Shown: positions 10,292 to 57,255 of the stretch, in pieces
How positions within the stretch are numbered: the first letter of the stretch is position 1
How the letters are laid out: every line of letters begins with the position of its first letter
Assembly: GCA_951406725.2 (NCBI GenBank)
Contig: OX597823.1
Span: 40,238,001 to 40,302,000, forward strand
Direction of reading: 5' to 3'
DNA length: 64,000 bases
Source: Octopus vulgaris
Lineage: Eukaryota
The notes under the pieces: model-generated
Seen by the model: the letters and a program-made list of their open reading frames with translations, nothing else
Told to the model about the DNA's origin: nothing
Databases searched by the model: none
Position numbers and translations under genes: made by a program

Positions 10292-10405
<114 letters not shown>

Positions 10406-10485
10406 GATATAGGATAAATTTTTTTCGGGAAAAAATTTTTATCAATGGCCAGCATATCAAAAAATGCCTCTAAAGGTAAACTTTA

Positions 10486-10856
10486 TACATAATTTACAAG
10501 ATAAGGGCAGAAGGAAATTTCTAATGCCAGATACATCGAAACAAAAAATTGTCGATAACCATTAAATTTATGCGTCTCGAAACAAACCGATAGAAATCTC
10601 TAAAAAATTCGTTATTACCGTATTGGTCCAATTTCGGGGTTAATTCACAAGAAATTTTCCCCTCTTCAGCGGCACGTACGCGAGATATAAATGAAATACT
10701 TATTCACACCCACGGAAGAAGCAAGCACCAAGTCCCGAGCAGACTTAAGTACCCCAAATATATCCAGACGCATATATTTAATGGTTATCGACAATTTTTT
10801 TGTTTCGGCGTATCTGGCATTAGAATTTTTCTTATGCCCTTATCTTGTAAATTATG

Positions 10857-10858
<2 letters not shown>
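10486..10858 (-). mobile_element. Short non-coding Penelope-type module with inverted arms and a hammerhead
   Basis: Imperfect inverted repeats 10486-10577 and 10766-10858 around an HHR; (TA)n nearby on both sides. Confidence 0.7.
10616..10674 (-). ncRNA. Type I hammerhead ribozyme, canonical core
   Basis: Minus strand: UGCCG-CUGAAGA-GGGG(19 nt)CCCC-GAA-AUUGG-A-CCAAU-A|CGGUA. Stems I, II and III all pair; AUA triplet. Confidence 0.8.
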
Positions 10859-19777: not shown

Positions 19778-21028
19778 TTCACGCTTGCGCTCACACGCAC
19801 ATATATATTTATACCACATTCTGAATATACTGTTACTGTCAGCAAGCTCTACTGGCAGACGTTAGTCAACAGAACCCTGGTAGCTAAGATGACTTACAGT
19901 TGCTAAAATGGCGTACGTTGTGTCATTGCACCAAGTGGTTTAGAATTACACCAATAGCTGCACATATATCGCAATTACAAGAATTTCTGTGGGAGCGGTT
20001 TTCCACTGAAAATACTCACTTCTTAGTAATTTTTCAAAGACATAAATATGTATTCATACGCAGCTATAGTTATCATACGTACGCATTTACACAACAGCGC
20101 TTATGGACACGTTTATCGCTGACTATGTATGGCTATCCGTACCTATGTACATGCATACACATCGACATATACACATAGAGACATTCGCACACACATAAAT
20201 ATTGACACATTTATCGATATACATGCATAACGATAACCATACACACACCAGACATGTGCCTTGAATAAAGCCTTGGTGTATGCAGTAGGCATTAAGAAAT
20301 AATGTCAACAAACGGCTTTATGCATAAGTATTGCGAGTACAGGGGGAATATTTGTAGAAATGTTAGGGCTTCAGACACAATGATTGGCATCGGTACTTGA
20401 TTCAATTCTCTGGGCTCTGGGTTCAAATCACGCCCAGGTCAACATTACCTTTCATCCTTTTCGTGTCGATAAAAGAGTACTAATCGAAAGTAGCGAACTG
20501 GCTGAACCGTAAAAACGCCAGGCCGGATGTCTTCCAGTATTTGTTTCGGCTTCTTGCGATGTAAGTTCAAATCTCGGCATGGACTACGTGGATGGTAGTC
20601 ATAATCTTTCATCTTGTTTAATACCGCCATCTGCTATCTTGGGTACCATTAGCAGAGTCCATTCTATAACAAGCATTCTAGTTATGCTTTCGTTGTGAAG
20701 ATACCTACCGCCCTCCTTCTCACAAGTCGAAGGGGCCTGTAGTGGATCGTGGGTATTGCGTTCCCTCCGAAGTAAAAGATAAAAAAGGAACACACACACA
20801 CACACACACATACACACATTCACACACACATATATAAACACATACATACATACATACTAATGTTTGATTTAACGTCAAGTTACAATAGAATTGTGCATTA
20901 AACTGGGCTGCCCAGTACATATTAAGATAGTACATACTTATATTTTAACAAGAACATTATTGAGACTCAAAACTTCGAAGTCACTATTCAGCAGATACTC
21001 TTCTTAAAGAATAATACACATACATATA

Positions 21029-22106
21029 AGAAGGTCGGCTAAAAAGTTCACAGGCTGACAAAGACAGTCTAAAGGAATGTGACCAAATGAATCTATTTTT
21101 CAATATAGTTCCTTTTGCGGTCCACACACTTCTTCCATCAGAGTTACACTGCTTGGATCCCATTGGCGAAGAAGTTTTCATCCTGTTGATTAAAAAAAAA
21201 AAAATCATCAACATCAGATATGACGTCATCATCACTGCGACACTGATTCCCAGCCTAGTGTTTTTCTCATAATAGGGAAGAGATGATAGTCAGATCGGGC
21301 TAAATCAGGTGAATAAAGACAGTGATCAACCAGTTCAAATCCTGTCACGCACAGCAGCCACAGAAACCAGAGACTTGTGTGCTGAAGCATTGTCCTGATG
21401 AATAAAGACCCTTCCGTGAGTTTTCCTGGTTGTTTGATCTTGATAACCTTTCGTAACCGCCTCAGCAAGTAGGCATAGTACTCTCTCTCTCTCCATTCCT
21501 TCTGAAGATAGTAAAAACACTGAGGCAATCAGCTTCTCTCCAGATGGTTATGAAGCAGGTGAAGAGGGGTGTTTCTATTGCATGGATTACCTCTTTGTCT
21601 CTGGCTCAAAGTATTGAACCCAAAACTCATTCTTGGCTAGGAAACGTTCAAAGAAACCAAATGGATCTGCTTGAAACTATGTCAGATTTTCCCTTGATCT
21701 GGTTTCAGAAGACGTGGCATCCACGGAGCTGGGACATTCGACAGTTGCAGGACGTCCAGACCTGGTGTCATCTTCAAGACTCCCTCTTCCCCTGATGAAT
21801 TCAGCTGCTCACTTTTACTCGGTGGATAAAACCAGAGCGACATTATCTAATGCTGCAAGCGTATCAGCATGAATGTCCTTGGGAGCTAACCCCCTTTTCT
21901 GTTGGTACTTGATAACTTTACAATGCCAAATTTTGTCTATTTTCAAGTCGCTATTATTTACATTTAGAGTTCTTTGAACAGTCATCAGTTTACTTGGAAA
22001 GAAACAATGCAATTATTAATACGTGTTGAAATTAATACGTGCAAGATTTCACAACTCTATCATCATTCCTTCATAGTAAGCCTATGAACTTTTCAGTCCA
22101 CTCTCG
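21029..22106 (-). mobile_element. mariner (DD34D) element with both TIRs, decayed transposase
   Basis: Imperfect ~28-bp TIRs (AAAAGTTCA.AGGCT) with flanking TA. Motifs include VIKY...KDIHAD, SLEDDTRSGRP, HQDNASAH and YSPDLARSDYHLF; stops and frameshifts present. Confidence 0.9.
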
Positions 22107-22341
22107 TACGTACTTACATATACGCATACATACATACATACATACATACATACATACATACATACATACATACATGCATACATACATACATACATACATA
22201 CATACTGTATATATATGTATGTATGCATACATATTGTATGTAAGTATCTCTCTATATAAACATATATATATATATATATATACTGCATATATGTATATAC
22301 ATATATATATGTACATATGTGTATATATATAGATATGTGTA

Positions 22342-22391
<50 letters not shown>

Positions 22392-22958
22392 ACATACAGA
22401 GAGAGAGAGAGAGAGAGAGGGAAAGAGAAAGAGAGATAGGTGGAAATAGAAAGAAGGCGAGAGAGAGAGATAGAGTGGGAGAGAGAAAGAAAGAAAGAAA
22501 GAAAGAAAGGAAGAACTTTTCGATATGTCACAGTTCGAGTTAAAAAGTTTTTTATTAAATATTTTTTTCTCATATTTTCTCATTATTAAGAGCTTTTGTC
22601 ATGAAGTTTACAACTTTCGTGTTTATAACTTTCATACTTTGTATACTATATTGGTTGTTTGAAGTAAGTTCAATGCTGCACAATATATTGCTGTTTGAAG
22701 TTCGGTCTATGGCGTGAAACTTTGTGGTTTCTGACTGGTGAGAAAATTTTTCATTCTCGAATTTTTTTTTAAGTATATGTTCGAACTATGAACTTGTATT
22801 TGTTCTGTTATACACTCCATGTTATATTTTACAAGATTTTAATAACGACACTGGTATCTACTGTACGTTTGGTTTGTGTATTTTTTCCCCTGTATAATGG
22901 ATTTGATTTATCTATGGGAATGCACTCACTGACAGATAGTTCTACAGAGAGAGAGAGA

Positions 22959-23012
<54 letters not shown>

Positions 23013-24176
23013 TAATTTTAATTGGGTACGTCATTATCATCACCGACACTCAGATATTTTTATTCAGAGTCCTAGGATTCGGGGCTGGTTTTCAAGTTCC
23101 CATAACGTATAAGTGACTGAGATCATAATATGCATCGCTTAATCCTTATATACCCACGTTGCGTTTTTGCAACGCAAATCCTGTTCCTACTTGTTTAGAT
23201 ATGAACTCGCCGGGAAGCATCTGACCGAGCATTCGAAATGTTCAGGAGGTGGTCGACACCCGTAGCTGAGAGCTGCATAGTGTCCTTCTCTTCCAGATTG
23301 TGAAAGCTTGCCATAACGTTTAATCTAAATACAGTGAAATTTTAAGACTTCATTTTTTATTGGACATATATGGGTTAACGAGATACCAGTCCGTCGCAAC
23401 GTTACCTATTTACAGCTCGGTGGACAGGATCAACGTGAAATGCGGAGTTTTGCTTAAGACTACAACGCGTCAACTATTCTGGGAATCAGTAAAAATCACG
23501 ATCTTCCGAACATTAGTGCAACACCTGAAACGTATTTCACTCATGAGATCTATCAAAAGTTTTTTCTTAGTAGATGAGAATTTACAAGATGCTCTAATCC
23601 TATCGACTACTGATATTCTGTATCTTTCGTTACCCTCACTCACAACCTCCTTGCACGTATAAGGATGTGTTTAAATTTTGTGTCATGTATACCAAAGTGC
23701 TATGTAACGTTTCTTATTTCTTCCTTTATATCTAAGAATGCAATGATATTGCTATGCAAATTTATGTTAGTTTTCTTGAACTAGGGATTTACAAGAGGAA
23801 TTATTTCGAGATTTTCTGTCAGTCTTTCAGCCTGTCCTTCCATATTTGTCCAATGGCTATGTCAGCAATAGTACTAGGTATAGATAATGGGTTTTTTAAA
23901 ATCTTAGAATGACTTTGATTTCGTGTTTTCTCACATAGTATCTATGAGGAGATATTTTCCCCCGAAACTATTGCTGCAGCGAAAGGTCTTCTCACGTCCA
24001 AATTTATAGGAACGTGTTAAATATGATTGAACACAGATATATTTAATTTAACCTTGCTTTGTGCACCACTGGTTAATCAAAAGATAAAGCTTAGTGCATG
24101 TCAGTGAATGTATTATTTGCTGATCATATATACATAAAAAACCCAGTTATTTCAGGGCTGAGGTTGATTGGTTCGG

Positions 24177-24232
24177 TATTCGTAGCTGATGAAGCGTAAC
24201 AATGCAGAAACACATGCGTCCTACAATCGAAT
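24177..24232 (+). ncRNA. Candidate type I hammerhead ribozyme
   Basis: AUUCGUAG-CUGAUGA-aGCG(uaacaa)UGCa-GAA-ACACAUGCGU-C|CUACaauCGAAU. Bulged stem I, GUC triplet, near-palindromic stem III; weak base of stem II. Confidence 0.55.
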
Positions 24233-24365
24233 GACATCATTCATTTCTCAGCGATGTGTTTCAACACATTTTCCATGAAAAGAAATGTTTCCGGACACTA
24301 TTTCTGCAGCGAATGGTTCTTCCCCATCCGATTGTATTCGGTCGTGTTTAATATGGTCATACATA

Positions 24366-24797
24366 CCTTTTATCTTTTATCTTTTACTTGTTTCAGTCAT
24401 TTACCTTCGGCCATGTAGGAGCACCGCCTTAAAGTATTTTTAGTCGAAAAAATCGACCCCAGGACTTATTTTTTAAAAGTTAGTATTTATTCTATCGGTC
24501 TCATTTGCTAAACTGTTAAGTTACGGGGACGTAAACACAGCAGCGGTTTTGAAGAAGTGGGAGGGGGAGAAACACAAACCCAAAGACACGCTCACACACA
24601 CACACACAGACACACACACACATATACACATGCGACGTGCTTCTTCCCGTTTCCGCCTGCCAAATCCACTCACAAGGCTTTGGTTGGTCCGAAGCTAAAG
24701 CTGAAGACACGTGCCCAATGTGCCACACAGTGGGACTGAACCAGCAACAATGTGGTAGAAAGCAAGCTTTTTACCTCACAGCCACGCCTTTGCCTTT
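24366..24797 (-). mobile_element. SINE family A, full length
   Basis: Reverse complement of 12242-12745. Confidence 0.85.
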
Positions 24798-24972
24798 CCT
24801 CATTAATATATAGAACATCGCTACCTGTTAAATGAGGCATCTGCAGATGCAGCACGAAGTTTTGTCATTGGACATTTTCCCCGCAGCAATTGTTTCTGAA
24901 AATTAAATGTTGAAGTGAATCTTATGGGTTTTTTTCTTAAATGGCTAACAAATATATTCGAAGCTGCAATTA

Positions 24973-25033
<61 letters not shown>

Positions 25034-29949: not shown

Positions 29950-31753
29950 CTGCTCTGCCATAGTAGCCAAGTTTGTGGAGATACCTGTCAGCTGTTATGG
30001 GACTAACATCAACTTGTTCTGCTATGTAAGAGGCGTTACAATGAAGGGAATAAAAAAACTTGTGGATTTAGCGGTTAATCATGGCGACTGGTTGAACAAA
30101 GGTAATTGGACAGGAGAGCTAGGAAGAAGGGGAGATAATAAAGTACTGGTGATGCCAAAACGAAGGTGCGCGTGCGTTGTGTAGGTGTAAGTGTGTAAGT
30201 GTGTGCGTGTGGAAAGGGGCTGGTGACTTTGACGTGTGGATTTGTGGGTGTGTGCATCTGTAATGTGTAAGCGTATGGATGATGGTGTGGATGCTGGGAG
30301 GTGTTGAGTGCTAGTGTGTGCGGAGTGGTGTGGGGGGATGTGATGTAGTGTGTGGTGTGGGGATGTAAGGGTGGGGTGTTGGATTAGGGGTGGGTATGTG
30401 GGAGTGGAATGTGTGGGGGTGGAATGGAGGGGTAAGAGATGAAGTAGGTGTCAGAGGAAGAGAGGAGAGGAGGGGAGTCAGATGAATAGGGGAGGGGAGT
30501 TGAGCCCATATGACACAAAGGAGCGAAGAGAGAAGATTAATTTCTGTTCACGGCGAAGATGCCCGCAAAATGATCAACTGCTTGGAACTGGCCAAGAGCT
30601 GGCGTCCAGTGGGATGGTTGGCGGCTCAGGTCGGTGAAGCAGTCTTCTTTGTTAAATACAGGTGGATCGTTGTGGAATAGTGCATATAACCTGACACAAC
30701 GACGAAACTATGAATATCAGCACAGGTCTGAAATTCGTTACTGGATGGAGTGAGGGGGATGAAACGCAAAACCTTACTGAGAAGGGAGCGCTCCGTCTCA
30801 GAGAAGACAAGATCAGGAGGAATGGTAACAACAGACTGAAGTGGGGAGGGTTGATGTGTTAGATGTGGGTGGGTGGTAGGAATAGTGGAAGGCTGGGAGG
30901 AGAGAGAAGAGGGGTAAGTGTTTGTGTGTGGGAGTTGGAATAACGGAAGGGTTGGGGGAAGATGAAGGGGAAGTGTATCAGAGCGAGAAGGAGTGGTGGT
31001 AGTGACATCGGGTGTGACTGAATGAAAAAGTGAGTGGAGTTTACGTTGTTTAGTGCGAGCGACAAACTTGTGGAAAAGATAATTTAAGTGGATTATGTAG
31101 CTTAGAGTGGAATGTGCATAAGAAGGTGAAAGAGAGGCAAAAAGATGGAATAAGCGAGAGGGAGAAGGCGGTCGTGGGTGTTATTTTGGAGAGATTGGAA
31201 CAAATGGCGGCACGTATAATGCGGTAGAATGTAGTACGGAGTATGGGTAGGATGGCAAGAGTAGAGTAGGAAATGGAGTGGAAATGGAGGCCGAAAACTT
31301 TGGGGACGAGGTGGTGGTGAAGGCAGCGACTCAGAAATGAAACGTGGCTAGAGAACTGTTTCTTTTTTTTGAAAATTACTAGGGAAAGATTAATAGAAGG
31401 TTGAAAGCAACGGAAAGGACTTGTAGAAAGGTATTTCTTTAGGCGGTGGTGAAGGTGTAGGAGGAAAGATTTGTTATCGGGCAAAAAGGAGAAAAACCTG
31501 GCAGAGAGAAAGGCAAAGACATGACGTACTGAGTATAAAAGTTCAAAAACTTCAAAAGGCGTGAGAAGAAAAGGAAAAAATAAGAAGAAAAAAAGAAGAA
31601 ACTGAGAGAAAAGGAGAAAAAAAGAAGAAAAGGAAAAGGAAAAGAAAAAGCGAGAGCGACAGGGAAAATAATGTACGGTTTAAGACAAAACGGATATATA
31701 TATATATATATATATAGGTATATATATGCATATACATACATATATACGTATAA

Positions 31754-32630: not shown

Positions 32631-33188
32631 AATTCACCGGAACTTTATTTTATCGACCCCGTAAACTTGAGAGTCAAACTTGATCTCTGTGGGATTCGAA
32701 CTGTGAACTCAGAGCCGAAAGTTATATTGCAAAGCATTTTCTTTGACGCTCTAGTGATTCTGCCAGCTCGAAGTACATCAATTGCAGTCGGTAAACGCAC
32801 TAACAAATCGATTTGCAGTTTCTACTTATGACACATTACCTCCTACTTTCAAATCTTTGTGAGGCCAGCTTTGCTTGCATGTCTTCTGAAGCATTTATTA
32901 CGCAGAAAAAATTCACCGGAACTTTATTTTATCGACCCCGTAAACTTGAGATTCAAACTTGATCTCTGTGGGATTCGAACTGTGAACTCAGAGCCGAAAG
33001 TTATGTTGCAAAGCATTTTCTTTGACGCTCTAGTGATTCTGCCAGCTCGAAGTACATCAATGCAGTCGGTAAACGCACAAACCAATCGATTTGCAGTTTC
33101 TAGTTATGACACATTACCTCCTACTTTCAAATCTTTGTGAGGCCAGCTTTACTTGCATGTCTTCTGAAGCATTTATTACGCATAAAAA
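32631..33188. repeat. Recent ~279-bp tandem duplication (SINE B fragment plus unique flank)
   Basis: Units start at 32631 and 32910 and differ at only a handful of positions. Confidence 0.95.
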
Positions 33189-33524
33189 AATAAAATACCC
33201 ATTAAGAACCGAGTTTGATGTCATTGATCATTTCTTCACTATCAAACTTGTGACTTTTTTTTTCCTAATTCAGATATCAATATATGTTAAGACCAGTTCA
33301 GATATAATTGATAGAGAACTTATGAAAGGCTTTTTAAATTTGTTGTGGATAGAAAAATATGCACTCTTTAGAGAAAAATATATTAAAACACTATATTCAG
33401 TTTAGAGAGCTCTCTATTCGACTGATACATACATTTCGACCTCGTTAGTTCTCTTCAGCATGAGATAACTAGAAAGTGAAGCTCTGTTTATTGGAAGTCA
33501 GTCAATAATATGGACTGATAGCAA

Positions 33525-45285: not shown

Positions 45286-45965
45286 ACTGGTCTCGCAACA
45301 GTAATTAAGTCGTTGGTTCCTTACCAAATATTTTCTTCTCTGATATATTGAAACCGCCGACATCTCTCCAGTTATTGATTCTTAAATAGACAAGTGAAAT
45401 AAAATAGTTCATCTACGAAATGAAAGTTTGATGGTAATTAATTTTGTTATAGTTTAACTATTATCGTACAGTGTGCATTCATTAATAATCTCTCTCTCTC
45501 GCTTACACACGCACACACACGCACACACACACACACACACACACTAATATATATAATTTCTGTCACAAGGACACGTATAATTCGCAAATATCTATGTAAA
45601 TAATATATAGATATAGGTATATGTAGATATAGTCAATTCAAAAACACAGAGAAAAGGAAAAAAAAAATCAAACGTGAAGGAACGAAAAGAAAGTGCTTTT
45701 GGGGTCAAGAGAGTGTGAAGATGGTCGGAATACGCGCGCACATGTGTGTCGTAGTGTGTGTGTGTGCATGACAGTAACTGCGTGTGTGTGCGTGATAGCG
45801 TGTGTGTGGTATAGGAATAAAAAATAAAAATCGATACAAATAATTAAAAATATATATTAGTAAATTAAGAAAATAAATGGAAAGTATTATATATATGTAT
45901 ATTTTTTTTAAATAAAATTTATGAATAAATGAAAGAATGGAGTTGAACGACAAATTAACAAATTT

Positions 45966-46060
45966 CCTTTATTTTCGACATATGTTTCGAAGGCTGCATA
46001 TTCCTAATTGTGACGGAAAAAGGAGTACATTATGCCGCTTTCTCATCAGGAAAAACAAGG
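45966..46060 (-). ncRNA. Type I hammerhead ribozyme with long stem II
   Basis: CCUUguUUUUC-CUGAUGA-GAAAGCGGCAUA...UAUGCAGCCUUC-GAA-ACAUAUGU-C|GAAAAuaAAGG. Palindromic stem III, GUC triplet. Confidence 0.8.
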
Positions 46061-46244
46061 AATTTATGTCAACATCAAGATTCACAAAAACTTTTAGATG
46101 ACTGCTCTCACACAAATTTCCACACGAAAACACGTAGTCTCTGCCCTAGGCACGTAACTTCAACCGTGTTATTTCTGATGTGAATTTGCTACCCAGGTAT
46201 CGGTTAAACGAATTATCCATAAAAAGATATTTCATTTTTCTACT

Positions 46245-46277
<33 letters not shown>

Positions 46278-46279
<2 letters not shown>

Positions 46280-47005
46280 AATAGAAATATTAAAATAACT
46301 AAGTCTCTCTAAAAGAGAACAGCGGCAGCGTTCCCGGAAAATAATAGTTATCGCCATACTAATATGGCATTCTTATAAAAATAAGAAAAAAGCTGTCCGC
46401 TTATTAGCTCCATGAGGCCATCGCCTTAAGTTAGCTATTTGATACACAAACTGTATCCATATAACCTTCGAACAAGGGAGGTCAGTCGCTCCACACTACT
46501 TGACCGGCAGCTACAGACGCGTTTCGGGGTATTGCCCCTTTTCAATGCAGCGTAGCCAGCCAGTAGGTGTCGCTTCCGACAATCTCTGTTCGATGGTTTT
46601 ATTTACCTAGTTTCGGTGGAATACATCCACTTGTTTTCAATAATAGAAATATTAAAATAACTAAGTCTCTCTAAAAGAGAACAGCGGCAGCGTTCCCGGA
46701 AAATAATAGTTATCGCCATACTAATATGGCATTCTTATAAAAATAAGAAAAAAGCTGTCCGCTTATTAGCTCCATGAGGCCATCGCCTTAAGTTAGCTAT
46801 TTGATACACAAACTGTATCCATATAACCTTCGAACAATACTGCCGGTCAAGTAGTGTGAAGCGACTGACCTCCCTTGTTCGAAGGTTATATGGATACAGT
46901 TTGTGTATCAAATAGCTAACTTAAGGCGATGGCCTCATGGAGCTAATAAGCGGACAGCTTTTTTCTTATTTTTATAAGAATGCCATATTAGTATGGCGAT
47001 AACTA

Positions 47006-47006
<1 letters not shown>
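46278..47006 (-). mobile_element. Young non-coding Penelope/retrozyme-like module: 362-bp unit, 198-bp partial tandem copy and 167-bp inverted copy
   Basis: 46640-46837 repeats 46278-46475. 46840-47006 is the reverse complement of 46344-46510 (one mismatch seen). (TA)n on both sides. Confidence 0.85.
46506..46557 (-). ncRNA. Type I hammerhead ribozyme, U3-A8 core variant
   Basis: GCUGCA-UUGAAAA-GGGG(caaua)CCCC-GAA-ACGCGU-C|UGUAGC. 6-bp stem I, 4-bp stem II, palindromic stem III, GUC triplet. Confidence 0.85.
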
Positions 47007-47098
<92 letters not shown>

Positions 47099-47143
47099 AA
47101 ACAAGTCAAGATAGAAAATGCTAAAATAATTTTATAAAGAACA

Positions 47144-47187
47144 TTTCAGTACCGGTTTCGGTCATTTTGAGACTTTTTCAACTGTAA
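47144..47187 (-). ncRNA. Type I hammerhead ribozyme, U3-A8 core variant, within module ~47094-47462
   Basis: UUaCAG-UUGAAAA-aGUC(ucaaaau)GACc-GAA-ACCGGU-A|CUGaAA. Palindromic stem III, GUA triplet. Confidence 0.7.
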
Positions 47188-47456
47188 CGATTAAATAGTT
47201 AAATTTAGAAAAATTAAGTGGCATTTTCCTTGTTTCTGCCTTGTGGGTTCGAGGTCGTATTCTCCTGGTTTGCGGAATTAATGTTATTTTGCGGTTGAAG
47301 CTTTGGCTGTTATTTCTAGTGGGTGAATGGCCTATTATGGCCGTTCCTTGATTGTGATGTTGAACTTATAAATGGTCTATGACTATTTAATTTTTTCCCA
47401 CTAGGCCGCTGGTGGCAAAAAAATTCTACAAAATTTTTTTTGCCACCCTATATTGA

Positions 47457-47576: not shown

Positions 47577-48810
47577 TGGGTCATCCCATAAATAATGTGT
47601 TTTTTTTCAATTGTATGAACTAAAATTCGGAAGGGGACGGGATAAGCTACCTGCATCAACTTGCAATAAAAGCAGGTTGTAATTTTACCTTGTACTAATT
47701 CTTAGTGCAAGCTTTGAAGAGTGCAGTTCGATTTTAACAGTTATTTTTTAAAAGCAATAAAATAGAAGTGACAAAGGAGCATATTGTTTTGTGTGTTCAA
47801 TAAAGTTAACAACGCAACGGTAAGTGCGAGGAATATTAATGCAATATATGGAGATCAGACAATAAGCGTAAGCCAGTGTCAACGGTGGTTCCAGAAATTC
47901 CGAGCCGAAAACTACAGCCTAGAAGACGAACCTCTTCCTAGAACATCTTTAGGGCTCGACGAAGACGTCCCGCAAACCCTGGTGGGACTTAATTCCATTG
48001 TGACTGTTGAGGAACTAGCAGAGAAGCTTGGATTTGGTCATTCAACCATTCATCAGCACCTTCTTGCTATCGGAAAAGTCAGAAAATTGGGTGAATGGCT
48101 TCCTCACAAATCTTTCGGAGTCTATTCGCGCGCCGCGCAGAGAGTGAATGTATGCTCTTCTTTGCTGTCACGTCTCACGAATGAATATTTTTTGAACCGA
48201 ATAATGATTGGTGACTAGAAATGGGTTCTGTATAAAAACGTCAAGCACCGAGGATAGTGGGTAGGGAAAGGAGAAACACCAGTACCTCAGGTTAAATAAG
48301 GCCTTCACCTACGTAAGGTGTTGTTATCTGTTTGGTGGGATATGAAAGGTTTAGTCCACTTTGAACTTTTAAACCCAAACCAAACAATAACAAAGATCTA
48401 CTGCGAGCAGCTTGAATAGCTTATATCAGCGCTAGAAGAAAAACGATCATCTTTGCTTTCAAGACGAAAGGTTTCCTTACATCAGAATAATGCTCGGCCA
48501 TATACAGCGTGAATGACATTCGAAATGCCGGTGCAGTTTGAATGGGAAACGATGTCACACCCACCATATTCACCGGACATTGCCTCATCTGATTACCATT
48601 TATTCTGCAGTCTTCAAAATAATTTGAACGGAAAAAATATGAATTCTGTAGATGAGGTCAGAACAGTACTGGAAGAGTATTTTTCGTCATGGACAAGTGA
48701 ATTTTGGAAGAGAGGCCTTGCAAGTCTACTAGACAGATGGAAGAGCTTTGTAGAAAATGAAGGAGAGTATGTTTTAGATTAAAAAAGAACTTTGTCTTAA
48801 TTTTGAAAAA
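47576..48810 (+). mobile_element. mariner (DD34D) element, near-complete transposase pseudogene (~47763-48782)
   Basis: TA|TTGGGTCATCCCATAAATAATG left TIR; QRWFQKFR...SLEDE, GEWLPH, IGD*KWVLY, HQNNARP and YSPDIASSDYHLF; multiple stops. Right TIR not clear. Confidence 0.9.
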
Positions 48811-56559: not shown

Positions 56560-57255
56560 AATAATTAAGTTTTAGCACAAGGCCAACAATATGGGGGTAG
56601 GATGTCGGTTACATATGCACCAGCATTTTACTGGTACTTTATTTTATCTACCTACAAAAGGATGAAAGGCAAAAATCGACTCTAGCGGGAACTGAAGTCA
56701 GAACGTAAAGCTGGAAGAAATTCCACAAAGCAGTTTATTCGGTATGTTAAGGATTCAGTCAGTTAACCTTCAAGAACTCGCATAAGTGTTTCAAACTTTG
56801 GCACAGTGCTAGTAAGTTTTATGAAGTGGATATGTCGATTACATCAACCCAAGTTTTCCCTTGGTACTTATTTTATCGACCACAGAAGTATGAATAGCAA
56901 AGTAAACCTCGGCGGAATTGGAACTCTGAACGGAAAGCTCAAAGTGATACAGCTTAGCCGTTTGTCCTACGCGCTGATAATTCTGCCAGCTTGCTGCCTT
57001 CAGGGATTCATAAATAATGAATTAAGTAATAGTTCTTTCTAGAGTAATACAGACACAGGGACTGAAATTTTGGTATGAGGGTCTAGTCGATTACACCGAA
57101 CCCAGTGCTTAACTGGTACTTATTTATATCGAGCACGAAAGAAAGGTAAAGAGTTGACTTCGGCAGAATTTGAACTTCAAACGTGAAACCGGGAGAAAGG
57201 CCGTTAAGTATTTTGTCGGACGTAGTAACCAATTGTAGCAGCTTGCTGCCTTCGG
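56560..57255 (-). mobile_element. Three head-to-tail diverged SINE family B copies
   Basis: TGGTACTT.....TATC core recurs at ~56632, ~56862 and ~57114. Confidence 0.75.

Follow-up and report, generated by a model that had tools for sequence, protein, structure and literature searches.

Introduction

Metazoan non-LTR retrozymes, as described in PMC7229834, share many features with the locus presented here, which lies at positions 46278-47006 of a 64-kb stretch of Octopus vulgaris DNA (the window, i.e. the whole stretch analysed). The features in common are the size of the unit, a G+C content below 45-50%, the lack of an ORF, the occurrence of tandem joints, one type I hammerhead per unit and a monomer with strong self-pairing in which the ribozyme fold is preserved, with the Mytilus repeats of 350-390 bp being the closest in size to the 362-bp unit found here (PMC7229834). 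Unlike those retrozymes, the 362-bp unit has a U3-A8 core and the locus contains a single ribozyme; helix III of the unit is predicted to need a dimer, as in amphibian retrozymes and unlike most invertebrate ones.

A Penelope-like element (PLE) was proposed as the mobiliser of retrozymes in 2020, a proposal backed by co-occurrence and sequence likeness in a 2026 preprint (10.64898/2026.07.22.740005). Both the enzyme that copies animal retrozymes and the role of circles as its true template have so far been argued from these two kinds of evidence. The PLE-derived retrozymes of the preprint resemble the element studied here in being non-autonomous hammerhead repeats tied to PLE pseudo-LTRs, many copies of which are monomers. 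The co-occurrence and sequence likeness reported there come from 35 genomes, no mollusc is named in the available text, and in the main text we found no analysis of tails, inversions or targets.

The insertions of PLEs have a recognizable form: a partial tandem is accompanied by an adjacent inverted, 5'-truncated copy and by a tail of 30-40 bp at one end (PMC8557442), with target duplications of 8-10 bp (PMC3846280). Purified Poseidon protein nicks AT-rich DNA and extends both strands, its reverse transcription starting at two sites within the RNA, which mark the limits of the tail; in these in vitro experiments, on the one PLE studied biochemically, the main template was unprocessed RNA, insertion did not require ribozyme cleavage and none of the RNA reads started at the cut (PMC11167929). 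The endonuclease-bearing PLEs (Penelope/Poseidon, Neptune and Naiad; PMC8557442, PMC3846280, PMC11167929) leave a scar of the kind observed at 46278-47006, in AT-rich or (TA)n targets, whereas the present locus differs from them in having no RT/GIY-YIG ORF, a tail of 66 nt, an inversion joint free of palindromes and a non-minimal ribozyme. The non-autonomous Chlamys PLEs, e.g. MRC1, are likewise non-coding PLE dependants with pseudo-LTRs and head-to-tail copies, but they reside in green algae and most of them are reported to lack canonical hammerheads (PMC8557442).

For cephalopods, our literature searches, which covered few subscription papers, retrieved no paper on retrozymes; the words "inverted", "octopus" and "cephalopod" do not occur in the main text of PMC7229834. 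The repeat annotation of Octopus vulgaris includes 31 recently active PLE families, and the word ribozyme is absent from its available text (PMC13282606). The family of the unit may already be catalogued in Repbase or Dfam. The class of element is already known, and the value of the locus lies in its mechanistic evidence and in a probable new host lineage: it unites, at a single young locus, a retrozyme-type unit and what is probably a complete PLE insertion scar, its ends sit at readable distances from the predicted cut, and the many near-identical copies of the unit make the question of mobilisation testable genome-wide.

Structure of the locus

The full unit (46278..46639) is 362 bp long, non-coding, with 41.7% G+C and with the ribozyme sense on the minus strand. 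It is followed by a partial tandem copy on the same strand (46640..46837), which comprises unit positions 1-198 and stops 40 nt before it would reach the predicted cut, and thus lacks the ribozyme. Two filler bases (46838..46839) occupy the head-to-head joint between the direct and the inverted parts, and the inverted copy (46840..47006, plus strand) then runs from unit position 233 to 67 and carries a family allele at 46859. The 66-nt tail of the unit (46278..46343, minus strand) is present at the direct end only, being absent from the inverted copy. On the left the element is bordered by a (TA)n target tract that a single G interrupts (46248..46280) and on the right by a second (TA)n tract (47004..47094).

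Direct repeat comparison showed that 46278-46475 and 46640-46837 are identical at 198 of 198 positions with a spacing of 362, and that 46840-47006 is the reverse complement of 46344-46510 at 166 of 167 positions, the sole mismatch being 46491/46859. The sizes and coordinates given in a preliminary description of the locus (a 362-bp unit, an identical 198-bp direct repeat and an inverted copy of 167 bp that differs at one position) were exact, and its statements that there is no ORF and that (TA)n lies on both sides were confirmed. Scanning the six frames of 46278-47006, the longest ATG-started frame has 38 codons and the longest stop-free frame 61 codons. No RT/GIY-YIG ORF is present in 46278-47006, and no second copy of the unit was found elsewhere in the 64-kb window. 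The possibility that 46278-47006 is itself an autonomous PLE was rejected, given that it contains no ORF and gives no PLE protein match among 12 proteins related to the PLE remnant of the window.

Geometry and predicted folding of the ribozyme

The unit contains one predicted type I hammerhead, located on the minus strand at 46501..46562, the first base of its core being 46545. Helix I is formed by 46551-46546 with 46515-46510 (6 bp) and continues, past a 3+1 internal loop, for another 8 bp; the core UUGAAAA (46545-46539, minus strand) is of the U3-A8 variant; helix II (46538-46526) has 4 bp and a 5-nt loop, and is followed by GAAA (46525-46522) and by the helix III palindrome ACGCGU (46522-46517), in which helix III measures 1-2 bp. 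The cut is predicted after GUC, between 46516 and 46515. The internal loop of helix I together with the 5-nt loop 2 may resemble the Schistosoma motif of loop 1-loop 2 tertiary contacts. The whole arrangement holds this single hammerhead, since the partial and the inverted copies end 40 and 5 nt before the cut, respectively.

In the canonical metazoan type I hammerhead, helix I has 6 bp, helix II 4 bp and helix III 1-2 bp with a palindromic loop, whereas the minimal PLE hammerhead has a helix II of 7-8 bp, a helix I of 4-5 bp and an extra unpaired base at 9/10.1; the U3-A8 pair is a natural covariation in Schistosoma PLE ribozymes (PMC4209133). The literature search yielded no figure for the frequency of U3-A8 cores. 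The ribozyme of the unit resembles the minimal PLE hammerheads of PMC4209133 in being of type I, in its dependence on a dimer (predicted here) and in its U3-A8 core, known among them, and differs from them by its 4-bp helix II, its 6-bp helix I and the absence of an extra base at 9/10.1. Judged from its sequence, the motif at 46501-46562 is of canonical metazoan geometry with a variant core and is not the minimal PLE form, which the preliminary description had cited. The claim made there of a fully paired type I hammerhead holds as to the type, on the minus strand, but not as to the pairing, helix III having 1-2 bp and being predicted to form in the dimer only.

The folding predictions point to the same dependence. 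The dimer folds as a double hammerhead at a predicted -31.9 kcal/mol, versus -12.9 kcal/mol per monomer, and closing helix III in the monomer would cost a predicted 5.6 kcal/mol; according to these models helix III forms only between two copies. The 66-nt ribozyme region folds with z = -3.59, 1 of 200 shuffles being equally good. The 362-nt monomer, taken from cut to cut, has a predicted circular fold of -121.9 kcal/mol with 64% of its bases paired; its z values are -6.7 and -7.0, the latter being below those of all 25 background stretches of the window, the lowest of which reached -4.9.

A hammerhead descriptor, composed after the motif had been seen, gave 5 matches in the window (3 of them with a palindromic helix III), compared with 1 match, not palindromic, in 30 block-shuffled windows. 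Rfam returned no match at gathering score over the 64 kb, and two narrower searches returned no hammerhead family at E <= 10. Exact scans found no match to a 30-nt ribozyme pattern in metagenome and viral contigs, nor to a 22-nt pattern in metagenome contigs.

Occurrence of the unit in sequencing runs

The unit was present in 20 of the 24 public runs listed, each holding at least 0.94 of 31 sampled words; leaving out the 5 runs that are marked as a possible source of this DNA, the unit is still found in 15 runs, which belong to 9 studies. In addition, 2337 contigs were recovered from one run (X12), in keeping with a multi-copy sequence. The runs holding the unit carry nine coded organism labels, which, considering that samples may be host-associated, we do not read as a sign of cross-species occurrence or horizontal transfer. 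No RNA run is listed among those holding the unit; X6 is only guessed to be RNA, and its contigs were not counted as expression.

The joint that leads from unit position 362 back to 1 (46639->46278) was found in all four of these 20 runs that were compared with the bare unit. Two contigs (X4 record 16 and X10 record 1) are unbranched loops of 392 nt (362+30) with 0 differences from the unit at 46278-46639; X4 and X10, like X12, are each marked as possibly the source of this DNA. The recurrence of the joint and the unbranched loops imply that 362 is the unit of the family and not a chance truncation. Eight of the 10 rows with extra letters fall at the 362-to-1 joint, of which 7 are length-neutral substitutions and 1 is a six-nt deletion; the joint thus acts as ordinary templated sequence, and on the same counts the idea that these letters are untemplated additions by the reverse transcriptase was rejected.

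The 2337 contigs of X12 comprise 888 at 99+% identity, 892 at 95-99%, 436 at 90-95% and 121 under 90%, a spread which indicates a young family alongside an older sister family. The depth in X12 is about 21,000-25,000 at the least-branched places, versus 34-61 for contigs with rare variants, which suggests hundreds of copies of the unit, although depth is no copy number. By these data the unit at 46278-46639 is multi-copy, young and non-coding. It lies within about 150-450 bp, has a G+C content under 50% and occurs in multiple head-to-tail copies, and by the features tested it would belong with the metazoan non-LTR retrozymes (PMC7229834, PMC7761336, PMC6155905, as far as their available texts describe them).

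Within the family contigs 24 variant places were identified, none of them in the core; one falls in 46510-46551, where about 2.8 would be expected, a difference that is not significant. Two variants break pairs in the extension of helix I, and two others give G-U pairs.

The sister subfamily, about 10% diverged, occurs in X6, X10 and X12, differs most at unit positions 42-70 and 110-125, and has a head-to-head inversion of its own. Diverged sister copies add almost no cover over 46560-46639 in X6 and X10. An inversion joint linking 46387 and 46428 on opposite strands was observed in X12, and another in one X10 contig, read by eye. The inversion joint of the 46278-47006 locus was not seen among the joints listed for four runs, in which contigs show presence and not absence. 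Unrelated flanking sequence adjoins unit positions 1-4 in diverged copies, twice in X6 and once in X10, and one X6 contig stops at unit position 197 within a TA run; together these contigs imply further dispersed insertions with similar ends.

Traces of the insertion event

At its direct end the element begins with unit position 1 and at its inverted end with position 67, which leaves the 66-nt tail on one side. Both ends fall within the only two ATAATAG motifs of the unit, a motif that was picked post hoc and that occurs in the window at background frequency (25 seen, 26 expected). From these ends we infer two start sites of reverse transcription, at unit positions 1-4 and 64-67, flanking the tail.

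A 12-nt repeat with its lone G in register occurs at both borders (left 46269-46280, right 47004-47015) and probably represents the target duplication. The 12-mer has 3 nt in common with the element on each side, and a TG within the first five units is found in 12 of the 52 TA tracts of the window, which sets the background for the G. With this background the repeat is only suggestive of a target duplication produced by a staggered cut with both ends priming.

The difference at 46491 corresponds to a family allele, present in 17 contigs of X12 at a depth of 121,550/458,022 and found also in X10. Unit position 214 occurs once on the direct side, where it carries another letter than in the inverted copy. 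Given that the single mismatch is a family allele, the inverted copy likely derives from another, second template. Fold-back self-priming was disfavoured as the origin of the inversion, considering that the joint has no palindrome and that the inverted copy carries a differing allele.

Taken at the level of sequence, the scar at 46278-47006 is PLE-like, with a head-to-head inversion, a one-sided tail and a probable 12-nt target duplication. The PLE-like pattern of tandem and inverted copies noticed earlier was corroborated, the locus having a partial tandem, an adjacent 5'-truncated inverted copy and a one-sided tail. The length of the tail, 66 nt versus the usual 30-40, counts against a PLE scar.

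Origin of the locus and proposed mechanism

We consider it probable that 46278-47006 is the insertion of a young, non-autonomous element of the retrozyme type that was mobilised in trans by a PLE. The preliminary description had similarly proposed a young PLE-mobilised ribozyme retroelement; its multi-copy, young and non-coding character, its one hammerhead and its PLE-type scar were borne out, the remainder being what we infer. The same description had offered a truncated PLE end as a fallback. On this reading, in the form considered here, the unit would be a mere pseudo-LTR of an autonomous PLE and the locus and tandem joints would be 5'-truncated partial tandems, without an independent monomer RNA. 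The arrangement is indeed that of a textbook PLE end, a PLE remnant lies inside the window, the U3-A8 core has been reported from PLE ribozymes (PMC4209133), and retrozymes can equal pseudo-LTRs, 24 of 57 Xenopus families in the 2026 preprint having matched known elements, nearly all of them PLEs. This fallback is weakened by the fixed 362-nt period, which closes in 4 of 4 runs, unbranched in two, and which random 5' truncation would not yield, even though loop contigs would mask a low-copy autonomous element with the same end. Furthermore, none of the 18 loose-end rows listed (97 more exist) exits into other sequence from unit positions 283-362, to which the body of a PLE should be joined; the short helix II, the true helix III palindrome and the lack of an extra base at 9/10.1 are unlike minimal PLE ribozymes; and the unit is unmatched to 12 proteins related to the PLE remnant of the window (best E = 1.4, a weak test with one full-length PLE among the 12). 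We judge an origin as a mere pseudo-LTR to be unlikely.

Two further explanations concern how the unit spreads and whether the locus is real. A PLE-derived minisatellite could spread mainly by DNA recombination or from transcripts that are uncut linear multimers, the ribozyme being a passenger and no circle being formed. Long arrays and many short tandems are indistinguishable in the loop contigs, which fit both alike; the preprint proposes local amplification by unequal crossover, with most dimers inactive (10.64898/2026.07.22.740005), and unprocessed RNA was the main template of one PLE in vitro (PMC11167929). Considering that 46278-47006 is a dispersed insertion with a retrotransposition-type scar, that the monomer is predicted to be unusually self-paired and that only 5 nt separate the end of the inverted copy from the predicted cut (a single event, with a chance probability of about 6 in 362), we find this explanation quite unlikely. 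It is highly improbable that the tandem-plus-inverted structure is an assembly artefact, either a fold-back read or a mis-resolved repeat between TA tracts. It does lie between two microsatellites, and PLE structures of this kind trouble assemblies (PMC8557442), but the inverted copy has the other family allele and includes positions 199-233, which do not adjoin the joint on the direct side, a matching G-marked 12-mer is present on both flanks, and an older, unrelated element of like design, with arms 8% apart, exists at 10403-10858.

For the preferred reading, an insertion mobilised in trans by a PLE, we propose the following course of events. Tandem master copies elsewhere would be transcribed from the strand that is minus here, and adjacent hammerheads would pair through the ACGCGU palindrome, so that 362-nt monomers are cut out. 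These monomers may be ligated into circles, which a lone ribozyme could not easily reopen. The PLE endonuclease would make two nicks in the (TA)n tract, one per strand and about 12 nt from each other, and each of the resulting 3' ends would prime reverse transcription at one of two internal RNA sites with a 3-nt ATA microhomology. The top strand would copy 1.55 units, crossing the cut site once, which implies either a circle or an uncut multimer as template, two forms that the sequence cannot distinguish. For the bottom strand the template would be another RNA, one that had been cut, copied from position 67 to near its 5' end; a cleaved linear template is consistent with the position of this cDNA end, 5 nt from the cut. 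The two cDNAs would finally be joined head to head.

With a single ribozyme, the locus would be a dead-end daughter, and the 46278-47006 copy is best seen as a daughter insertion unable to make a circle of its own. It does not hold the two consecutive complete ribozymes that the rule for active copies in the 2026 preprint calls for, which excludes the locus as an active master copy but not the family. Counting against the proposed cycle, 8 of 9 tested retrozyme dimers are reported not to have cleaved in vitro (Li, Clavereau, Pollet 2026, 10.64898/2026.07.22.740005), and Poseidon inserted in vitro independently of cleavage (PMC11167929).

A more far-reaching reading, which we regard as possible if doubtful, is that the retrozyme family is active in a cephalopod and that its insertions preserve a record of the cycle's chemistry in vivo. 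One target strand would prime on a ligated 362-nt circle and run beyond the ribozyme joint, the other would prime on a ribozyme-cut linear monomer and stop at the 5' end of that monomer, and each would begin at a fixed internal start. If true, the hundreds of near-identical copies would prove genome-wide that retrozyme circles are mobilised by a PLE enzyme, and hammerhead cleavage would shape the template, in contrast to what was found for Poseidon in vitro.

Other elements in the window

The older element at 10403-10858 has the same design as the locus described above and an unrelated sequence. It is about 360 nt long, with a C3-G8 hammerhead (core 10669, minus strand), an inverted arm of 96 nt (91.7%) from which an 83-nt tail is missing, and (TA)n on both sides. 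This arm and the partial copy at 46640-46837 both stop 40 nt away from their respective predicted cuts.

Two segments of about 350-360 nt between TA tracts border the locus, each with a hammerhead-like motif on the minus strand. The one at 45900-46247 (core 46049) has a long helix II and a palindromic helix III, and the one at 47095-47455 (core 47181) has a U3-A8 core and a palindromic helix III, the first pair of its helix II being mismatched. The segments 45900-46247, 46278-47006 and 47095-47455 probably constitute a nest of PLE-type insertions into TA tracts. The four hammerhead segments of about 350-360 nt in the window showed no homology to one another (best z = 1.9).

Over the joint of the unit, at 46600-46650 on the minus strand, we observed a hammerhead-like ghost consisting of core-like bases, a 5-bp hairpin and GAAA. 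It was not counted as a hammerhead, lacking helix I and the G10.1-C11.1 pair, and it may be due to chance or be a decayed second ribozyme. A weak hammerhead-like motif is found at 33420-33460 (core 33458, minus strand), near which a 69-nt stretch recurs at 56869-56937 with 78% identity.

The PLE remnant of the window, at 30567-31490 on the minus strand, is the decayed 5' part of a PLE ORF that matches an 897-aa protein (tblastn E = 9e-11), whose RT and GIY-YIG matches are below the Pfam cut-offs and whose CxxCxxC-type cysteine linker we read as Neptune-like. The remnant implies that PLEs have been present in this genome, but nothing connects it with the unit (best E = 1.4). Downstream of the locus, at 47772-48218 on the plus strand, there is a remnant of a mariner-type transposase, one named protein among its 12 matches being a SETMAR-like protein of Octopus sinensis (64% identity), in keeping with a cephalopod genome though no proof of one. 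Finally, a 279-bp unit is present in two tandem copies with 96% identity at 32631-33191.
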